This document shows positions 262 through 14,537 of a stretch of DNA of 24,668 nt, piece after piece. The DNA comes from Candidatus Heimdallarchaeota archaeon (lineage in GTDB: Archaea > Asgardarchaeota > Heimdallarchaeia > Heimdallarchaeales > Heimdallarchaeaceae). The notes under the pieces were generated by a model, which saw only the letters and a program-made list of their open reading frames with translations, searched no databases and was not told where the DNA came from. The translations under genes were made by a program, and so were the position numbers. Position 1 is the stretch's first letter; every line of letters begins with the position of its first letter. The DNA is taken from contig JAEOTE010000134.1 of the NCBI GenBank assembly GCA_016839945.1, positions 1-24,668 of the forward strand, given 5' to 3'.

Positions 262-690
262 CTAATCATAGCTTCTGTTGTAATTTGATCTATTTTGATT
301 TGGTCTTCTACGATATCTTCTTGTATCTTCATGTTCTTGGTCTGAGAGGTTATTTTCCATATCTATTTTTTTAATTTTCTTATCAGAACTTTCTATATAT
401 CCTTCTCTACCTAGAGATAATCTAATATGTCTTTGGAATAGAATAGTTTTGGAGTTCAAAAATTGATAAATTTCATTTTCACTAATTTCTTCTATTTGTT
501 CATTCCATGCTGAGAAATAGACAGTACCTGTTTCATCTCCAATTAAAACGTCCATAACTTTATGTTCTTCCCCAGTATTTCTGTTTGTCACTTCGCGTAC
601 TTCTCCCAATTGTATAATTTTGGCAAGTAAATTTAATTCTCGAGTATTAGGAGATAATTCATTAACTTTAATATAATTAATTTCACTCAA
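262..690 (-). CDS. ssb: Single-stranded DNA-binding protein, single OB fold (Sulfolobus SSB/hSSB1-like)
   Basis: KVNELSPN...IGDETGTVYFSAW...LSLGREGYI parallels crenarchaeal SSB (VGDETGRVKLTLW); Arg-rich disordered C-tail; TTG start preceded by GTGA. Confidence 0.88.
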   Translation of the reverse strand: MSEINYIKVNELSPNTRELNLLAKIIQLGEVREVTNRNTGEEHKVMDVLIGDETGTVYFSAWNEQIEEISENEIYQFLNSKTILFQRHIRLSLGREGYIESSDKKIKKIDMENNLSDQEHEDTRRYRRRPNQNRSNYNRSYD

Positions 691-844
691 TTTATATCAC
701 TTTATTTCTTGATTATACAGTAAAATTCACGAAATTTTACCGTTTCAGTTTAATAAACTAGTTTATTTTTAATAATATTTTGATTGATACGAAATCCAAG
801 TGCAAAAAGTTATTAGAAATATAGTATATAGTGAAATCATGTAT

Positions 845-1081
845 ATGAGCATATTCAGGAGATTACAAGGAATAATTGCTAATATCGCAGATGTTAGAAA
901 AAAGAATCTTACAAATAACACATACATTCAAGATGATTTAGGATTGGATGAAGATGATTTAGCAGAACTAGTTCTAGCAATTGAAGAAGAATTTGATGTT
1001 AATCTACCAAAAAATATCTTCAAAGAATTTAACACAATAGGAGAAATAATTGGTTTTATTGAAGCAGAAATGGGGAGATAA
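845..1081 (+). CDS. Acyl carrier protein-like, lacking the phosphopantetheine-attachment Ser
   Basis: IQDDLGLDEDDLAELVLAIEEEFD...FNTIGEII aligns with ACP ([24 protein letters not shown]...ITTVQAAI); small acidic protein. ATG at 845 (or 839) preferred over GTG at 800. Confidence 0.85.
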   Translation: MSIFRRLQGIIANIADVRKKNLTNNTYIQDDLGLDEDDLAELVLAIEEEFDVNLPKNIFKEFNTIGEIIGFIEAEMGR

Positions 1082-1090
1082 TTTATTTTT

Positions 1091-2149
1091 TTAACAGTAG
1101 TATTGATTAAATATCTCCATTGTTTTTTCTTCAAAAAGTTTAAGATTTTCTAAAGATGGTTTGTTATTACCATCATCAATTTTTTGGACTAAATTAGTAA
1201 TAAATTCATTTAAAGGAGTTTGAATCCCATATTTTTTACCTAACTCAACAATATGTCCATTCATGTACGGTATTTCAGTTGGTAATCCTCTTTCATAAAA
1301 ACCTAAATTTGCCGACCTAAGTTTTTTATTTTGTTTTCCTATTATTTTGATTATTAACATTTTAAGCCATAAACTAAAAGGTAAGATTTTTCGTTGCTTT
1401 TTTAGCAAAGCTAATGATTCAAAGCTTATGTTATTTAATTTTGGTAAATTCAATCCCATTTTGTGTGCAATTTTTACTCCTTCAGTCAGATTTACGAGAA
1501 AAGCGATTCTCACTGGTTTTCGTTTTAAAAGCTCTCCTATAGCAAGTCCACTAAAAGCTCCTGTTGATGCCGTTGTGATGTTTATCAACAGTTTAGAGAA
1601 TTTATTACTAGTAATATCATCTGACCAACTAGTTTTAGCAGTATTTGAAATTGATTGATGTATTTCTTTATCAAATTGTCTTTTTTTACCCTTTAGTCTA
1701 CCAAGAACTATTTCTCCCTCATTGGTTCGTTCAGATTTTCCATAACCTCTCCAAATAGCATTAAAGCTGATTACACACCCTAGAATATTTTCAGGTGGGA
1801 GTATTTCTGCTATTTTCTCCTCAATCATACCATTTGTAAAATTAACTAGAGTAAAATCCTCACTTAGTGTAGCTTTGAGTCTATTGACTGCATCCAAAGC
1901 ATTGTCTATTTTAGTTATCAAAAAAACTACATCAATATCTTTTGGTAAATCTTCAATGTTTGAGAATGGAATAAGATTCTCTTTTACTGTAAATTCACCT
2001 CTAGCACCACTAATAGATAAACCATTTTCTTTTATTGATTGGATAGTTTCTGGAACCTTATCAACTACATGAACAATTTTACCTGCTCTTGCCATGTTTG
2101 CGATTATAATTGAACCAATTGAACCAGCTCCAATTACAGCAAGCTTCAT
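1091..2149 (-). CDS. Ketopantoate reductase (PanE/ApbA) family oxidoreductase, copy 1
   Basis: Rossmann GAGSIG, ITK, FTNG, SKLLIN (catalytic Lys) and TEIPYMNG (catalytic Glu), GIQTPLN. Confidence 0.88.
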   Translation of the reverse strand: MKLAVIGAGSIGSIIIANMARAGKIVHVVDKVPETIQSIKENGLSISGARGEFTVKENLIPFSNIEDLPKDIDVVFLITKIDNALDAVNRLKATLSEDFTLVNFTNGMIEEKIAEILPPENILGCVISFNAIWRGYGKSERTNEGEIVLGRLKGKKRQFDKEIHQSISNTAKTSWSDDITSNKFSKLLINITTASTGAFSGLAIGELLKRKPVRIAFLVNLTEGVKIAHKMGLNLPKLNNISFESLALLKKQRKILPFSLWLKMLIIKIIGKQNKKLRSANLGFYERGLPTEIPYMNGHIVELGKKYGIQTPLNEFITNLVQKIDDGNNKPSLENLKLFEEKTMEIFNQYYC

Positions 2150-3494: not shown

Positions 3495-3576
3495 AATAAT
3501 CAAACAAGCTCATAATAGACTCTATTTTAATTTTTTTATTAGAATATGAAAAACTCACATAATAGAAGTATTAATT

Positions 3577-3623
3577 TTATGATATACCATTTACTTATGA
3601 TATACCGTGTTTTTGATATATCA
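3577..3623. promoter_or_regulatory. Three copies of a TGATATA(C/T)C quasi-palindromic box, putative transcription factor sites
   Basis: TTATGATATACC at 3577-3588 and 3595-3606 (exact 12-bp direct repeat, 18-bp period); perfect palindrome TGATATATCA at 3614-3623. Confidence 0.65.
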
Positions 3624-3625
3624 TT

Positions 3626-3640
3626 GAAAATATTTAAAAT
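3626..3640 (+). promoter_or_regulatory. Putative BRE/TATA promoter of the actin-like gene
   Basis: GAAAA followed by TATTTAAAAT, TATA about 25-30 nt upstream of ATG 3663, as expected for a leaderless or short-leader archaeal transcript. Confidence 0.55.
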
Positions 3641-3662
3641 AAATATGAGAAATCTGGTAATT

Positions 3663-5123
3663 ATGTCAAAATCTGCACAGAACAGCAAACCAAAACATTG
3701 TGGCAAAACCATGATGAGAATTTATATTAGAAAGGGTACTGAGAAAAGAAAGTGGATACCTATTGGTTATTATTGTAATGAATGTTCAAAAATGATAAAA
3801 GATTCAGATTTGATTCCAACACGAAAAATAGATGAGATTCAAGGAGCAGGACCCAAGCTAGTAAATAAAGTTTCAAAACATCAAATTGTTGTTTTAGATT
3901 TAGGATACAGTCTTACCAAAGTTGGTTTTTCTGGAGAAAAAGAACCCAGATTCATTTTTGATACAGCCATATATCTTTCAGAAACAGGTGAATCATTTAT
4001 CCAAAAATCAGATGTAATTGAAAGAAAGAGGATCATTAATTTACGAAAGCAGATTTTCGAAACTAAAGAGAATATGGAAATTAATAAAGATAATTTAGAA
4101 ATCTTCCTTATTCATGTTTTTGAAGCATTAGAAATTAGTCCAACAAACAAATCAATCCTTGTTATAGAAAAGCATCACCAAAGTAATTATGCAGACTACT
4201 TCAAAGGAAGAATTGATGTAATCAATAACTGCACATTACCAGAAAAAACAAAAGAATCCCTAAAAGCTGAAAAAAGAGTAGACTTTGTTGATTATTCCAA
4301 AAATACAATTTCTCATCGAAGAACTATAGCTTCGATGTTATTTGATCAATTTAATATTGCAAAAGTGTATTTTTCAAATGGTGAACTACTTACTCTTTAC
4401 TCAAAAAAACATGTAACAGGTGTTGTTGTGAATATCGGTGCATTGACTTCACGCATTGTTCCAATCTATGAAGGATATATTATTTCCCATAGTGTGAGTG
4501 TTCGAGATTATGGAGGGTATGATGTAGAAGAACAGCTCTATAATTACATTCAAGAAAAGGGAGTTGAGTTGAATGATTCCAATTCTAGAGCTTACATTAT
4601 TCAAAAAAATATCCGATTAGCTTCTGAAGAACATCTCTATGTTTCACTAGATGAAAAAGAAGAACAAAACAAATGGTTAGAATCTGATAAGTTGATAAGA
4701 TCAATCAATATCATCAATGAAACTTACACAATGCTAGATGAAATTAGATTCAAAGCTCCTGAAATCCTTTTCAAGAACGAGCAACTGAGTATAATTAAGA
4801 AACAAGGAAGTTTAGCTGATGCAGTTATAGAAACTATTCAAAAATGCGATAAAGATTTAACTAAAGCATTGTATTCCAACATTATACTTTCTGGAGGAGG
4901 AACAATGTATGAAGGATTTAAAGAAAGGTTCATTCTGGATATGAAGAAGAAACTTCCTGAACACATTGTTATTAATGTTACAGCTGATTCTGATCGATTA
5001 ATCTCTACATGGATTGGGGGATCAATACTTGCAGGATTGAAAGTTTTTGAAGAAAAAGGATTATGGGTATCTAAAGCTGAATATAATGAAAAAGGTTCAT
5101 CAGCCGTAGATAGATGTATCTAG
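3663..5123 (+). CDS. Divergent actin-related protein with N-terminal zinc ribbon and HhH-like motif
   Basis: Actin signatures: VVLDLGYSLTKVGFSGEKEP, VPIYEGY, RFKAPEILF, KCDKDL..LYSNIILSGG.TMY, STWIGGSILA, WVSKAEYNE.G...V.RC. Start moved from 3546 to 3663 because the upstream stretch contains the repeat boxes and TATA. Confidence 0.93.
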   Translation: MSKSAQNSKPKHCGKTMMRIYIRKGTEKRKWIPIGYYCNECSKMIKDSDLIPTRKIDEIQGAGPKLVNKVSKHQIVVLDLGYSLTKVGFSGEKEPRFIFDTAIYLSETGESFIQKSDVIERKRIINLRKQIFETKENMEINKDNLEIFLIHVFEALEISPTNKSILVIEKHHQSNYADYFKGRIDVINNCTLPEKTKESLKAEKRVDFVDYSKNTISHRRTIASMLFDQFNIAKVYFSNGELLTLYSKKHVTGVVVNIGALTSRIVPIYEGYIISHSVSVRDYGGYDVEEQLYNYIQEKGVELNDSNSRAYIIQKNIRLASEEHLYVSLDEKEEQNKWLESDKLIRSINIINETYTMLDEIRFKAPEILFKNEQLSIIKKQGSLADAVIETIQKCDKDLTKALYSNIILSGGGTMYEGFKERFILDMKKKLPEHIVINVTADSDRLISTWIGGSILAGLKVFEEKGLWVSKAEYNEKGSSAVDRCI

Positions 5124-5133
5124 TAGCAATAAA

Positions 5134-6186
5134 CTATTCCAAATTCCATACTTTCCTTGTTTTTTCTTCTAATAATTTCAGATTTGAGAGGGAAGGTTTT
5201 GTTTTTCCTTCTTCTATCTCATGTACTAAATCTACTATGAATTTATTTAATGGAGTTTCAACGTTGTATTTTTCTCCTTGTTCTACAAGGTATCCATTTA
5301 GATAATCCACTTCTGTTTTTTCTCCCTCACTTAAAGATACAAGACTTGAAGTGTATAAATTCTTGTACTTTCTTCCCACTATTTTCATTATTAGTTGCTT
5401 TTTCATATGTTTTAAGGAAATCCCTTTCAGTTCCTTAGAAGTTAGAGCTAGAGTTTCAAATCTAATTTGATTCAAACGTTGTAGTTTGATTCCCTTAGCT
5501 TGAGCTATTTTAATTCCTTCAGTTAGTACTGCTAAGAAAGCTAAACGAGTTCCTTTTCTCTTCAGTTTTTCACCAAGTGTCATACCACTAACCATACCAA
5601 AAGAGGATGTATTAGTATTAATAAGAAGTTTAGTAAATTTAACATCCAAGATATTATCTGACCAACTAGTTGGTTCAATGTTTGATAGAATATTTAGGAG
5701 TTTTTCATCAATTTCTTGTTTGACACCTTTTATTCTACCTATTACTATTTCTCCTTTTGATGTTTTTTCAGATTCAGCTGGACCTATTCTTGTTGCTGCA
5801 AAACTTATTATGCAACTTAGTAATTGATTTGGTTTAAATCTTTCTTGTAACTTTTCTTCGAGTATTCCATTACTCATAACCATCAATGTAGCGTTTTCAG
5901 ACAGTTTGTTCTCAACACGTGTTATAGCATCTTCAGCATGAGTAAGTTTAGTTATTACGATTGCTAAATCCAGATCTTCAGGCAGTTCTTCTATTGTAAG
6001 TACAGGAAAAATATTTTCTTTTACAATGTAATCCCCACTCACTCCTGTAATTTTTAATCCCCTGTTCTTAATAGCTTCTAAAACTGGTTTTTCTCTACAA
6101 GCAGTATGAATTGGGAAACCATTTTTTGCGAAATTGGCAGCTATTATAGTCCCAATAGCACCTATTCCAATAACAGCAGTTTTCAT
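5134..6186 (-). CDS. Ketopantoate reductase (PanE/ApbA) family oxidoreductase, copy 2
   Basis: GIGAIG, ITK, MSNG, TKLLIN, TEVDYLNG, VETPLN; clear paralog of 1091..2149. Confidence 0.88.
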   Translation of the reverse strand: MKTAVIGIGAIGTIIAANFAKNGFPIHTACREKPVLEAIKNRGLKITGVSGDYIVKENIFPVLTIEELPEDLDLAIVITKLTHAEDAITRVENKLSENATLMVMSNGILEEKLQERFKPNQLLSCIISFAATRIGPAESEKTSKGEIVIGRIKGVKQEIDEKLLNILSNIEPTSWSDNILDVKFTKLLINTNTSSFGMVSGMTLGEKLKRKGTRLAFLAVLTEGIKIAQAKGIKLQRLNQIRFETLALTSKELKGISLKHMKKQLIMKIVGRKYKNLYTSSLVSLSEGEKTEVDYLNGYLVEQGEKYNVETPLNKFIVDLVHEIEEGKTKPSLSNLKLLEEKTRKVWNLE

Positions 6187-12380: not shown

Positions 12381-13214
12381 TCAACCTCTTTTATTTCTAA
12401 CAGTTTTAGAAGAATATTTAACTCTATATTTCTTAATAAATACACTTAGAATTACCATCACAATCAAGACTATGTTTAGGTACCAATACTCTGATGGAAG
12501 TGGTTCTATTGTAGAAACTATTCGTGCTACTTCAGATTTCTGTAGAGCAAATATTATCAAACGGAATTCTGCTACAAAAACTATGTATCCTAAAGTTAAA
12601 AATAGATATTTTTTCCAAAATTTAACTTCTTCAATGGTTTTTGGTTTACGAACATAATTAGATATTCTTGGTAGTAAAAATCCTGTTTTAGCCATATATT
12701 CCAAATAATCATCTCCAAAGTGAGAAATGAGTTTCTTTTCTTCTATAGTTGAGATTATAAGCAATACAAAAACAAATAATGACCAAGAGAGAATTCCAGC
12801 AACTCTTGCACTATATAGTGGAATTGCTAAAGAAGAAAGGATTAATCCTAGATGTTGTGGGTGTCTAATCCATTTGTAAGGACCTGTAGTAGCTATTCCT
12901 TCTTTATTCTTTCTTGTTTGTGCAATGATTATTATCCCCCAAATAAACAACGTACATCCACCTAATATAAGAATAATCTCAAAAATATACATGAGAATTA
13001 AACCAATAAAAGGTTTGTACAAAATAGTACCCAGCATCCAATTTCCAACACCTAGAAAAGAAAAGAGCAACCAAGTAGTGAATGCCAAAGGAACAAAATA
13101 AACCATTTCAATTATAAGGCTAGCAACTATAGGTAAATAAATCCAAATCAGACTAGGAATTGTTAGTAAAACATCAAGAAATCTCAGAATTATAGTCTTT
13201 TTCTTTTCTTTCAA
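12381..13214 (-). CDS. Isoprenylcysteine carboxyl methyltransferase / phospholipid methyltransferase (ICMT/PEMT) family membrane protein
   Basis: TTGPYKWIRHPQHLG and EEKKLISHFGDDYLEY...P motifs; extra TM helices at both ends; TTG start after GGAGTGG. Confidence 0.82.
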   Translation of the reverse strand: MKEKKKTIILRFLDVLLTIPSLIWIYLPIVASLIIEMVYFVPLAFTTWLLFSFLGVGNWMLGTILYKPFIGLILMYIFEIILILGGCTLFIWGIIIIAQTRKNKEGIATTGPYKWIRHPQHLGLILSSLAIPLYSARVAGILSWSLFVFVLLIISTIEEKKLISHFGDDYLEYMAKTGFLLPRISNYVRKPKTIEEVKFWKKYLFLTLGYIVFVAEFRLIIFALQKSEVARIVSTIEPLPSEYWYLNIVLIVMVILSVFIKKYRVKYSSKTVRNKRG

Positions 13215-13387
13215 ATTACCACTCCAATTGGTAGCAAACAGTCTATAGTTTACAATAACGGATATAATATCTTTCTCATCTTTATTTTTCTGTTTGTTTT
13301 TTTCTAGTAAAGAATGTTGCCACCAAATTAGTTACTAATTAGTATCCTACAAATGTTAAATCTTTTCCTAAAAGAAGGAGAGGAAAT

Positions 13388-14440
13388 TTAATTTTTCTCC
13401 ATCCATGTACGTCCATCCCAATGAGTCATTCCTTTTGTAGCTATTCCATCTGGTTTCTTACCTGCAGACAGCTCTTCTTCTGTTAACCAATACATTGATG
13501 GATGTTCAGTATTATACAGAATATTGTAAGCTTGAGGCATGTGTTCAACTATTACATGCTGACTAATGTCCCCTTCATATATTTCTCCATCGTGCTCCAT
13601 TCCTATTGGACTTTCTAGCTCTACCTCTACTTTTTTTGCATACTTATAGCGAACACCTTTAAGATTTAGGTGCTCTCCTTTGAATATTTTCTGAATCCCC
13701 AAGAGTGTTTGGAATTTAGTCATATCCTTGGAAATCATAACATCAAAGAAATCGTTCTGAGGATGAGCATGTACACAAGATAACATTCCACCACCGAGAG
13801 ATTTTCCGATTCCAATTGCTATTAGCATTAATTTGAAATCCATTGGATCCCCATCATCTAGAATGATTGTTCCTTTTCTTTGTTTGACTGTAGCTAATTT
13901 CTTTAAAGCTAGAAAGGTGTATTTTGATGGACCTTTTATCCAACTCATTTCGCCATCCAAATTAGCTAGATTTACAAGTGAGGATATACCAAAATCAAAA
14001 CTATTACCAAAGAAGACTTCAAATTTTGTATCTCGATATTTGACATGACCAATTGATGCAGGAGAAACAGCTGTTTTTTCAATTAATGTTTTTGCAGCGT
14101 TTTCAGGATTCCATGGCATTCCCATAAATGTACATAAATCATTCCCTGTTCCAAATGGTAACACTCCAAATGCTACACTTTTTCTTTTCTGCTCAGGGAA
14201 GCTCATTATCCCATTAATTGCTTCATTAACAACTCCGTCACCACTGGCAACGATTATACGGTTGAAACCATCATTGATTGCTTTCTTAGTTATTTCTTGC
14301 CCTTGAGCTCTTCCTGTTGTAAAAACAACATCATAATCAATTCCACTTTTCTTAATGACTGGTTCAGCTTTTTCCCATCTTTTTGGACATAATTGTGATC
14401 CAGCGTTAGGGTTAACTATAAATTTCCATTTTAGAGACAT
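13388..14440 (-). CDS. Diacylglycerol/lipid kinase family protein (YegS/DgkB-like)
   Basis: IVNPNAG, SGDGVVNEAING, LPFGTGNDL, GGGM, FDV, HDGE. Start at 14440 or 14461. Confidence 0.9.
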   Translation of the reverse strand: MSLKWKFIVNPNAGSQLCPKRWEKAEPVIKKSGIDYDVVFTTGRAQGQEITKKAINDGFNRIIVASGDGVVNEAINGIMSFPEQKRKSVAFGVLPFGTGNDLCTFMGMPWNPENAAKTLIEKTAVSPASIGHVKYRDTKFEVFFGNSFDFGISSLVNLANLDGEMSWIKGPSKYTFLALKKLATVKQRKGTIILDDGDPMDFKLMLIAIGIGKSLGGGMLSCVHAHPQNDFFDVMISKDMTKFQTLLGIQKIFKGEHLNLKGVRYKYAKKVEVELESPIGMEHDGEIYEGDISQHVIVEHMPQAYNILYNTEHPSMYWLTEEELSAGKKPDGIATKGMTHWDGRTWMEKN

Positions 14441-14537
14441 AAGGCATAAGAAATCGAACATAAAGATAAATGTTTTCTATTATATGAGTAGAGAATAAAT
14501 AATTAAACAAACACACCATTGACTTGTTCATGAATAA

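Follow-up and report, generated by a model that had tools for sequence, protein, structure and literature searches.

The window, by which we mean the whole 24,668-nucleotide stretch of Heimdall-type archaeal DNA that was analysed, contains a short gene for a homologue of acyl carrier protein (ACP), flanked by a divergent gene for an SSB-like OB-fold protein and a convergent gene for a paralogue of the PanE/ApbA reductase family (Table 1). The open reading frame that begins at position 845 on the forward strand and ends at 1081 translates, exactly as the initial annotation had quoted it, into a 78-residue protein whose only serine is residue 2. The reading frame is unchanged here, but we have moved the start codon. 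The ATG at 845 is the second in-frame ATG of the gene, and the N-termini of all 24 orthologues begin two codons further 5', with M-Y (M-I in a second genus; the pattern in full is M-Y-x-S). Because a genome search with the family profile also matched the span 839-1078, the start is most likely the ATG at 839, which would give a predicted protein of 80 amino acids with the glutamate discussed below at residue 38. The PanE-like gene is indeed arranged tail to tail with the ACP-like gene, 9 nt away.

Table 1. Features of the ACP-like locus, and the megasynthase of the same genome (G000)
Feature	Coordinates	Strand	Basis
SSB-like OB-fold gene, divergent neighbour	262..690	-	PF21473; position kept in most relatives
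Intergenic region between the divergent SSB-like gene and the ACP-like gene	691..838		Alignment to the SSB-LLM intergenic region of G011
ACP-like gene, 80 aa plus stop	839..1081	+	ORF and translation; family-profile match; orthologue N-termini; PF00550; AlphaFold2 model
GAA (Glu) in place of the DSL serine that bears phosphopantetheine	950..952	+	Sequence; profile alignments to solved ACPs
Most conserved family stretch (loop II, helix III, helix IV)	1007..1078	+	Alignments; helix positions from the model
PanE/ApbA-family reductase paralogue, convergent	1091..2149	-	PF02558, PF08546; TIGR00745, 157 bits against a cut-off of 141
3357-aa megasynthase	G000 contig C29:7155-17255	-	Loci L001/L008; Pfam

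To place the product within the ACP superfamily we took advantage of both profile and structural comparisons. It matches the Pfam PP-binding family (PF00550) at 33.1 bits, above the cut-off of 20.8. Its best NCBIfam match is the AcpP equivalog TIGR00517, at 56.5 bits and under the cut-off of 70.45, and TIGR04069, a peptide-maturation ACP-related protein, scored 26.7 bits against a cut-off of 70. Of the ACPs with solved structures, 106 sequences are recovered by a HMMER profile of the family at E <= 0.01. The AlphaFold2 model, for which 21 homologues served as input, has a mean pLDDT of 88 and places helices at residues 3-15, 36-50, 58-61, and 65-77; the top 40 PDB matches returned by Foldseek are all ACPs, mostly with TM-scores of 0.72-0.90, and AcpP structures, including chains of E. 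coli AcpP, align with the model at TM-scores of 0.8-0.9 and approximately 35% identity. The initial annotation had called the protein an ACP homologue while allowing that its fold might prove to be another. The fold returned was that of ACP, and the profile matches and the predicted structure together show a true four-helix ACP-fold homologue.

Among Ser-bearing proteins, the nearest relatives of this stand-alone gene are ordinary bacterial-type AcpP sequences. The protein has the four-helix fold and the length of AcpP from bacterial type II FAS (PF00550; TIGR00517; PDB 1L0H, 4ETW, 1X3O), and the two align without gaps through DLG.D-x-.D..EL...EEEF and T(I/V)GE. AcpP, however, has the attachment serine, where the Heimdall-type family has E, K, D, or N; helix III is acidic in AcpP, whereas in the family it is basic and hydrophobic (KNIFKEF). 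The charge of the ACP-like family is, moreover, not conserved, and no stand-alone AcpS was found in the host genome.

Profile alignments to solved ACPs place this variable E/K column exactly under the serine of the DSL motif. We confirmed the GAA codon at this site, the Asp that follows it, and the earlier observation that GAA lies at least two changes from every serine codon. Across 29 family sequences the column holds Lys in most, Glu in 6, Asp in 3, and Asn in 2, and the column preceding it holds D, N, T, or S, so that the D-E-D-D motif seen in the window is not a conserved feature of the homologues. A serine one residue before the site occurs in 8 of the 24 species but not in the window, and is not a conserved feature; cysteine is absent from 27 of the 29 sequences. 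The attachment serine is replaced in every one of the 29, and the protein cannot be a canonical thioester carrier, as had been argued from the single sequence. The alignments show that the attachment residue has been lost throughout the family, with no conserved chemistry in its place.

The charge of the family is equally unsettled, with a pI from 4.2 to 9.6 and a net charge from -9 to +5. The copies in the window and in the sister species G029 exceed all others in acidity (net charge -8 or -9, pI 4.2-4.3); their helix II reads DEDDLAELVLAIEEEFD, without two arginines that the helix has in the sister G011, whose copy already has a net charge of -5. Acidic copies are also found in other species that have no PanE-like gene. 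Two suggestions of the initial annotation fall on this variation when taken as properties of the family. A carboxylate-based amino-group carrier is ruled out because the site residue varies, being Lys in most orthologues and Asn in two, and an acidic module or mimic could at best be a feature of the window's own clade, the only strongly acidic one, because acidity is not conserved. What is conserved is the C-terminal third of the protein: the 25-residue block LPKNIFKEFNT(I/V)GE..G.IEAE.GR hardly varies, and the same holds for a few residues at the N-terminus and in loop I. We propose the surface from helix III to helix IV as the putative binding face of a protein whose role would be to bind.

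The family is narrowly distributed. A word-indexed search of 5.8 billion proteins returned 20 relatives, all of 65-80 aa, whose source labels read Heimdallarchaeota or Heimdallarchaeaceae and, once, Thorarchaeota. When 1.84 billion cluster representatives were searched exhaustively with HMMER, the family proper consisted of three representatives scoring 98-119 bits, below which the list continued with ordinary ACPs and tandem carrier domains. Neither fused nor longer forms of the family, including an LLM-ACP fusion, were found, which is weak evidence. Our genomic sample comprised 47 species of the same order, of which 24 carry the gene: it is present in single copy in G000, the window's genome, in 21 of the 24 other species of its genus, and in both species of a second genus, and it is absent from the remaining genomes of the 47, two closed genomes included. 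A canonical ACP in G004, a Heimdall-type MAG, was set aside as a probable contaminant; its contig (C585, locus L046) carries the acpP-rnc-smc string typical of bacteria and is itself most likely bacterial.

The ratio dN/dS between the window and G029 is 0.04 (Nei-Gojobori; dS 0.76), and in other pairs with a measurable, non-trivial dS it is mostly 0.04-0.17. Judging from these ratios, the sequences show a protein under strong purifying selection. The initial annotation had raised the prospect of a decaying copy among serine-bearing orthologues; we found instead a ratio of 0.04 and no serine at the site in any orthologue.

ACP-like sequences without the serine also occur outside this family. 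E, D, P, or A occupies the site in many of the best 150 cluster representatives, and P0028, P0050, P0077, P0095, and others are unrelated stand-alone or tandem ACP-like domains with one of these or another residue there. For P0050, P0077, and P0095 we looked for an LLM neighbour and found none that was informative, the contigs being short or the neighbours unrelated. Tandem carrier domains of the Thr type, such as 'ADLGIDTVKQAE', are common in large synthases. A literature search for Ser-less ACPs in Asgard archaea, or for an archaeal ACP-LLM pair, returned nothing on the family.

Gene order in the relatives supplies a context that is missing from the window. In 22 of the 24 species, a gene for a luciferase-like (LLM) oxidoreductase of 310 aa lies directly upstream on the same strand, at a spacing that ranges from a 1-nt overlap to a gap of approximately 12 nt, whereas the downstream neighbour varies in at least five ways (DUF1015, zinc-ribbon, AP-endonuclease-fold, S9 peptidase, and PanE-like). 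The LLM is closest to the F420-type TIGR03560 (200-205 bits, under the cut-off of 231) and scores 43-46 bits against TIGR04020, for which the cut-off is 244. LLM orthologues that are approximately 67% identical, and equal in length where full-length, are also present in three neighbouring genera without the ACP-like gene; in one closed genome of this kind a convergent gene follows the LLM directly. The ACP-like gene was therefore added behind an LLM gene that already existed, in the ancestor of the two genera. Within the family, gene order shows the LLM gene followed by the ACP-like gene to be the ancestral two-gene arrangement.

G000 and G029 are the only two of the 24 species in which no LLM gene lies beside the ACP-like gene, and we found no LLM orthologue elsewhere in their assemblies, which are 88% and 72% complete; the best matches are paralogues at 32-35% identity, as compared with 66% or more for orthologues. 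The 148-bp intergenic region of the window can be aligned with the SSB-LLM intergenic region of G011 at 80-95% identity up to approximately 40 nt before the ATG, and from the ATG onward the sequence is that of the ACP-like gene, with no LLM ORF between. Because homology to the G011 intergenic region is followed by ACP sequence, the LLM ORF is absent from its usual position. It was most simply deleted from the locus, at a junction that cannot be placed exactly within an AT-rich stretch, and the ACP-like gene now stands directly behind what was formerly the upstream region of the LLM gene. Loss of F420 was considered as the reason and rejected: CofE and CofD are present in both G000 and G029, and F420 is therefore available.

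The most parsimonious history has a single loss of the LLM gene, in an ancestor shared by G000 and G029. A single ancestral loss means that the ratio of 0.04 between these species covers the time after the loss, and therefore that, if the LLM was indeed lost once, the function of the protein is independent of it. The window and its sister species thus constitute a natural experiment, a built-in comparison for finding the binding target. In addition, parts of the SSB side of the intergenic region (compared between the window and L023:413-561) are 95-100% identical between species, e.g., TTGATTGATACGAAATC, while synonymous sites in the coding sequences of the same species are near saturation, a pattern suggestive of a regulatory element that has been conserved for the two divergent genes.

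The initial annotation had drawn a connection between the ACP-like gene and pantetheine synthesis by way of the PanE-like gene. That gene, however, is beside the ACP-like gene in only three of the 24 species (G000, G029, and G011) and is absent from this position in the other 21. From the gene orders compared, it is a recent insertion that took place in the ancestor of these three species, before the loss of the LLM, and so lends nothing to a pantetheine link. Another PanE/ApbA paralogue lies in the window at 5134-6186 on the reverse strand, 47% identical to the one at 1091-2149, and the two bracket a DUF1015 gene and an actin gene. The paralogue at 5134-6186 is found genus-wide, beside genes for a 2-hydroxyacid dehydrogenase and a class-V aminotransferase.

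We also surveyed the genome for the machinery that would be needed to load a carrier protein. A phosphopantetheinyl transferase had been named as something to look for, and one is present, though only in fused form: the sole PPTase (ACPS) domain in G000, the assembly of which is 88% complete, is the C-terminus of the megasynthase, and no stand-alone AcpS was found. By Pfam, the megasynthase contains an NMO-type enoyl reductase, KS, AT, a second KS-like region, two carrier domains, KR, DH, and the PPTase, and its gene is accompanied by those for a carboxyltransferase, BCCP, a biotin ligase, and a hydrolase. Its KS-AT part is found in 41 of the 47 genomes. The two carrier domains share the motif LGIDT, in which Thr takes the place of the serine, and Thr is found there in 67 of 73 carrier domains from 30 species of the order. 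The ACP-like protein shares a genome and a superfamily with carriers that also depart from the textbook serine, but these keep a hydroxyl residue and have a PPTase in cis. Descent from the megasynthase carriers was considered and rejected, because their best score against the family profile is only 14 bits; the stand-alone gene was not copied from them. The megasynthase with its Thr-type domains is the only plausible carrier system in the genome.

The reading that we favour, to which we would assign about an even chance, is that the protein is a cofactor-free ACP fold that binds protein non-covalently through helices III and IV, and that was once the operon partner of the LLM but is independent of it in the window. 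It would descend from an AcpP-type carrier that lost the phosphopantetheine arm, or any group at the old site, and would bind its partner through the conserved helix III-IV face and not through the variable helix II. The gene would have originated in the common ancestor of the two Heimdall-type genera as the second gene of an operon behind an F420-type LLM, of which its product was probably an accessory or docking partner. In the window's lineage the LLM would have gone while the upstream region was kept and purifying selection continued; with the LLM missing, the protein must therefore serve some other partner there, if binding is its role. The role in binding, the choice of face, and the identity of the LLM as first partner are our inferences. 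Of the interpretation first put forward for this gene, then, an ACP homologue that is maintained by selection and is not a thioester carrier has survived, and the amino-group carrier, the family-wide acidic mimic, and the link to pantetheine have been given up.

A cofactor-free ACP is already a known kind of protein, and the ACP-like family is a variant of it. The mitochondrial ACP of Plasmodium, which lacks the arm, still binds and stabilises Isd11-Nfs1 (Falekun et al. 2021, PMC8547962). The apicomplexan protein is similar in that the attachment serine or arm was lost, the gene was kept under purifying selection, and its product acts purely by protein binding, the role presumed for the ACP-like family. 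It differs in belonging to a eukaryotic organelle, with the LYR protein Isd11 and Nfs1 as partners, and in its independent origin. A search of the genome for Complex1_LYR (PF05347) gave no match, which carries little weight because control genomes were equally silent. As for the LLM, the LLM-class oxygenase MupA binds ACPs, apo and non-substrate ones included, possibly as docking elements (PMC10952193). MupA and the ACPs of the mupirocin PKS (TIGR04020) likewise pair a luciferase-like enzyme with carrier-fold proteins, but MupA's ACPs carry the serine and a tethered substrate, and the Heimdall-type LLM is nearest TIGR03560 and far from TIGR04020.

Several observations weigh against parts of the favoured reading. 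That LLM orthologues do without the ACP-like gene in three neighbouring genera counts against a partnership, and the adjacency of the two genes could merely reflect an ACP-like gene without a promoter of its own. Persistence of the protein after the loss means that the LLM is not its sole partner, and may be no partner at all. The wide variation of net charge and of helix II would be unusual for a fixed docking surface.

Among the alternatives, we take most seriously, while regarding it as unlikely, the idea that the four-helix bundle holds a hydrophobic molecule (a fatty acid or other lipid) untethered and hands it to oxidoreductases, the LLM among them. Acyl chains are known to be sequestered within ACP bundles, and the core hydrophobic positions and the entrance region between helices II and III are kept in the family. 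The genome's megasynthase makes fatty-acid or polyketide-type products, the F420 biosynthesis genes could supply cofactor to F420-dependent LLM-class enzymes, and some enzymes of the LLM family act on lipids, as in the NCBIfam name hydroxymycolic acid dehydrogenase. We know of no ACP, however, that carries ligands without the arm, and Phe and Ile/Leu occupy the positions that, from the sequence of E. coli AcpP and the profile alignment, we take to be the pocket residues Ala59 and Ala68, which points to a filled core. We think it distinctly improbable that the protein took on a lineage-specific role after the loss of the LLM, as a strongly acidic AcpP-like decoy or mimic for some other partner, such as the PanE-like reductase or the SSB-like protein. 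The extreme acidity of the window and G029 copies, the disappearance of the helix II arginine pair of G011, and the gain of the PanE-like gene in the same small clade would all suit such a role, but acidification predates the loss, as the charge of the G011 copy indicates, and acidic copies occur where there is no PanE-like gene; moreover, the helix III-IV block is unchanged, and the PanE-like gene is convergent and not co-transcribed.

A covalent carrier with non-canonical attachment, whether an amino-group carrier using a carboxylate or a protein with its arm elsewhere, e.g., on the serine one position earlier, seems to us very improbable in spite of the Glu or Asp at the site in 9 of 29 sequences, the earlier serine in a third of the species (8 of 24), and the use of Thr by the genome's carrier domains, which implies an unusual local PPTase. 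Lys or Asn is at the site in most orthologues, the earlier serine is not conserved and is missing from the window, and no conserved acidic motif like that of LysW is present at the C-terminus. In LysW, which has a zinc-ribbon fold, the groups are carried on the C-terminal Glu of an EDWGE motif, and the gene adjoins one for an ATP-grasp ligase. The ACP-like protein resembles LysW in being small and acidic and, in principle, in having a carboxylate to which groups could be attached, but it has the ACP fold, ends in G-R, and does not conserve its Glu, and no ATP-grasp ligase or other loading enzyme was found in the neighbourhoods of the ACP-like gene that we examined. We give the least credence of all, next to none, to the notion that the gene is a decaying, functionless remnant of a transferred bacterial acpP. 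The loss of the key serine, the loss of the operon partner in the window, and the narrow distribution are what decay might leave behind, yet selection stayed strong on the branch once the LLM had gone, and each of 24 species retains one intact copy containing the near-invariant block. Both the non-canonical covalent carrier and decay are poorly supported.

If the favoured reading of a cofactor-free binding protein is extended, the protein might be a regulatory or structural subunit of redox enzymes, at first of the F420-dependent LLM and then of others, or else the first non-covalent lipid shuttle, running from the Thr-type megasynthase to tailoring oxidoreductases; these are speculative extensions that we hold to be rather doubtful. 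A redox subunit, if true, would parallel, independently, the mitochondrial use of ACP as a structural subunit, and would be a carrier stripped of its cofactor in archaea close to the eukaryotic stem. We believe that the family is worthy of attention as a clean natural example of the ACP fold re-used without its cofactor. It also has a bearing on annotation: the database names "acyl carrier protein" and "phosphopantetheine-binding protein" wrongly suggest that Asgard archaea have lipid synthesis dependent on a free carrier, an ACP, and the lipid biochemistry of Asgard archaea bears on the origin of eukaryotic membranes.

We note two further points in the window. The actin-family gene at 3546-5123 on the forward strand matches PF00022 at residues 112-523 and, when read from its first ATG, has an N-terminal extension of approximately 110 aa with a Cys/His pattern (HCGK...YYCNEC) that resembles a small zinc ribbon; relatives are called at 486-487 aa, so that its true start is uncertain. 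At 12381-14461 on the reverse strand, a gene for a PEMT-like phospholipid methyltransferase adjoins one for a DAGK/YegS-type lipid kinase, which are lipid-head-group enzymes of bacterial or eukaryotic style, here in an archaeon.
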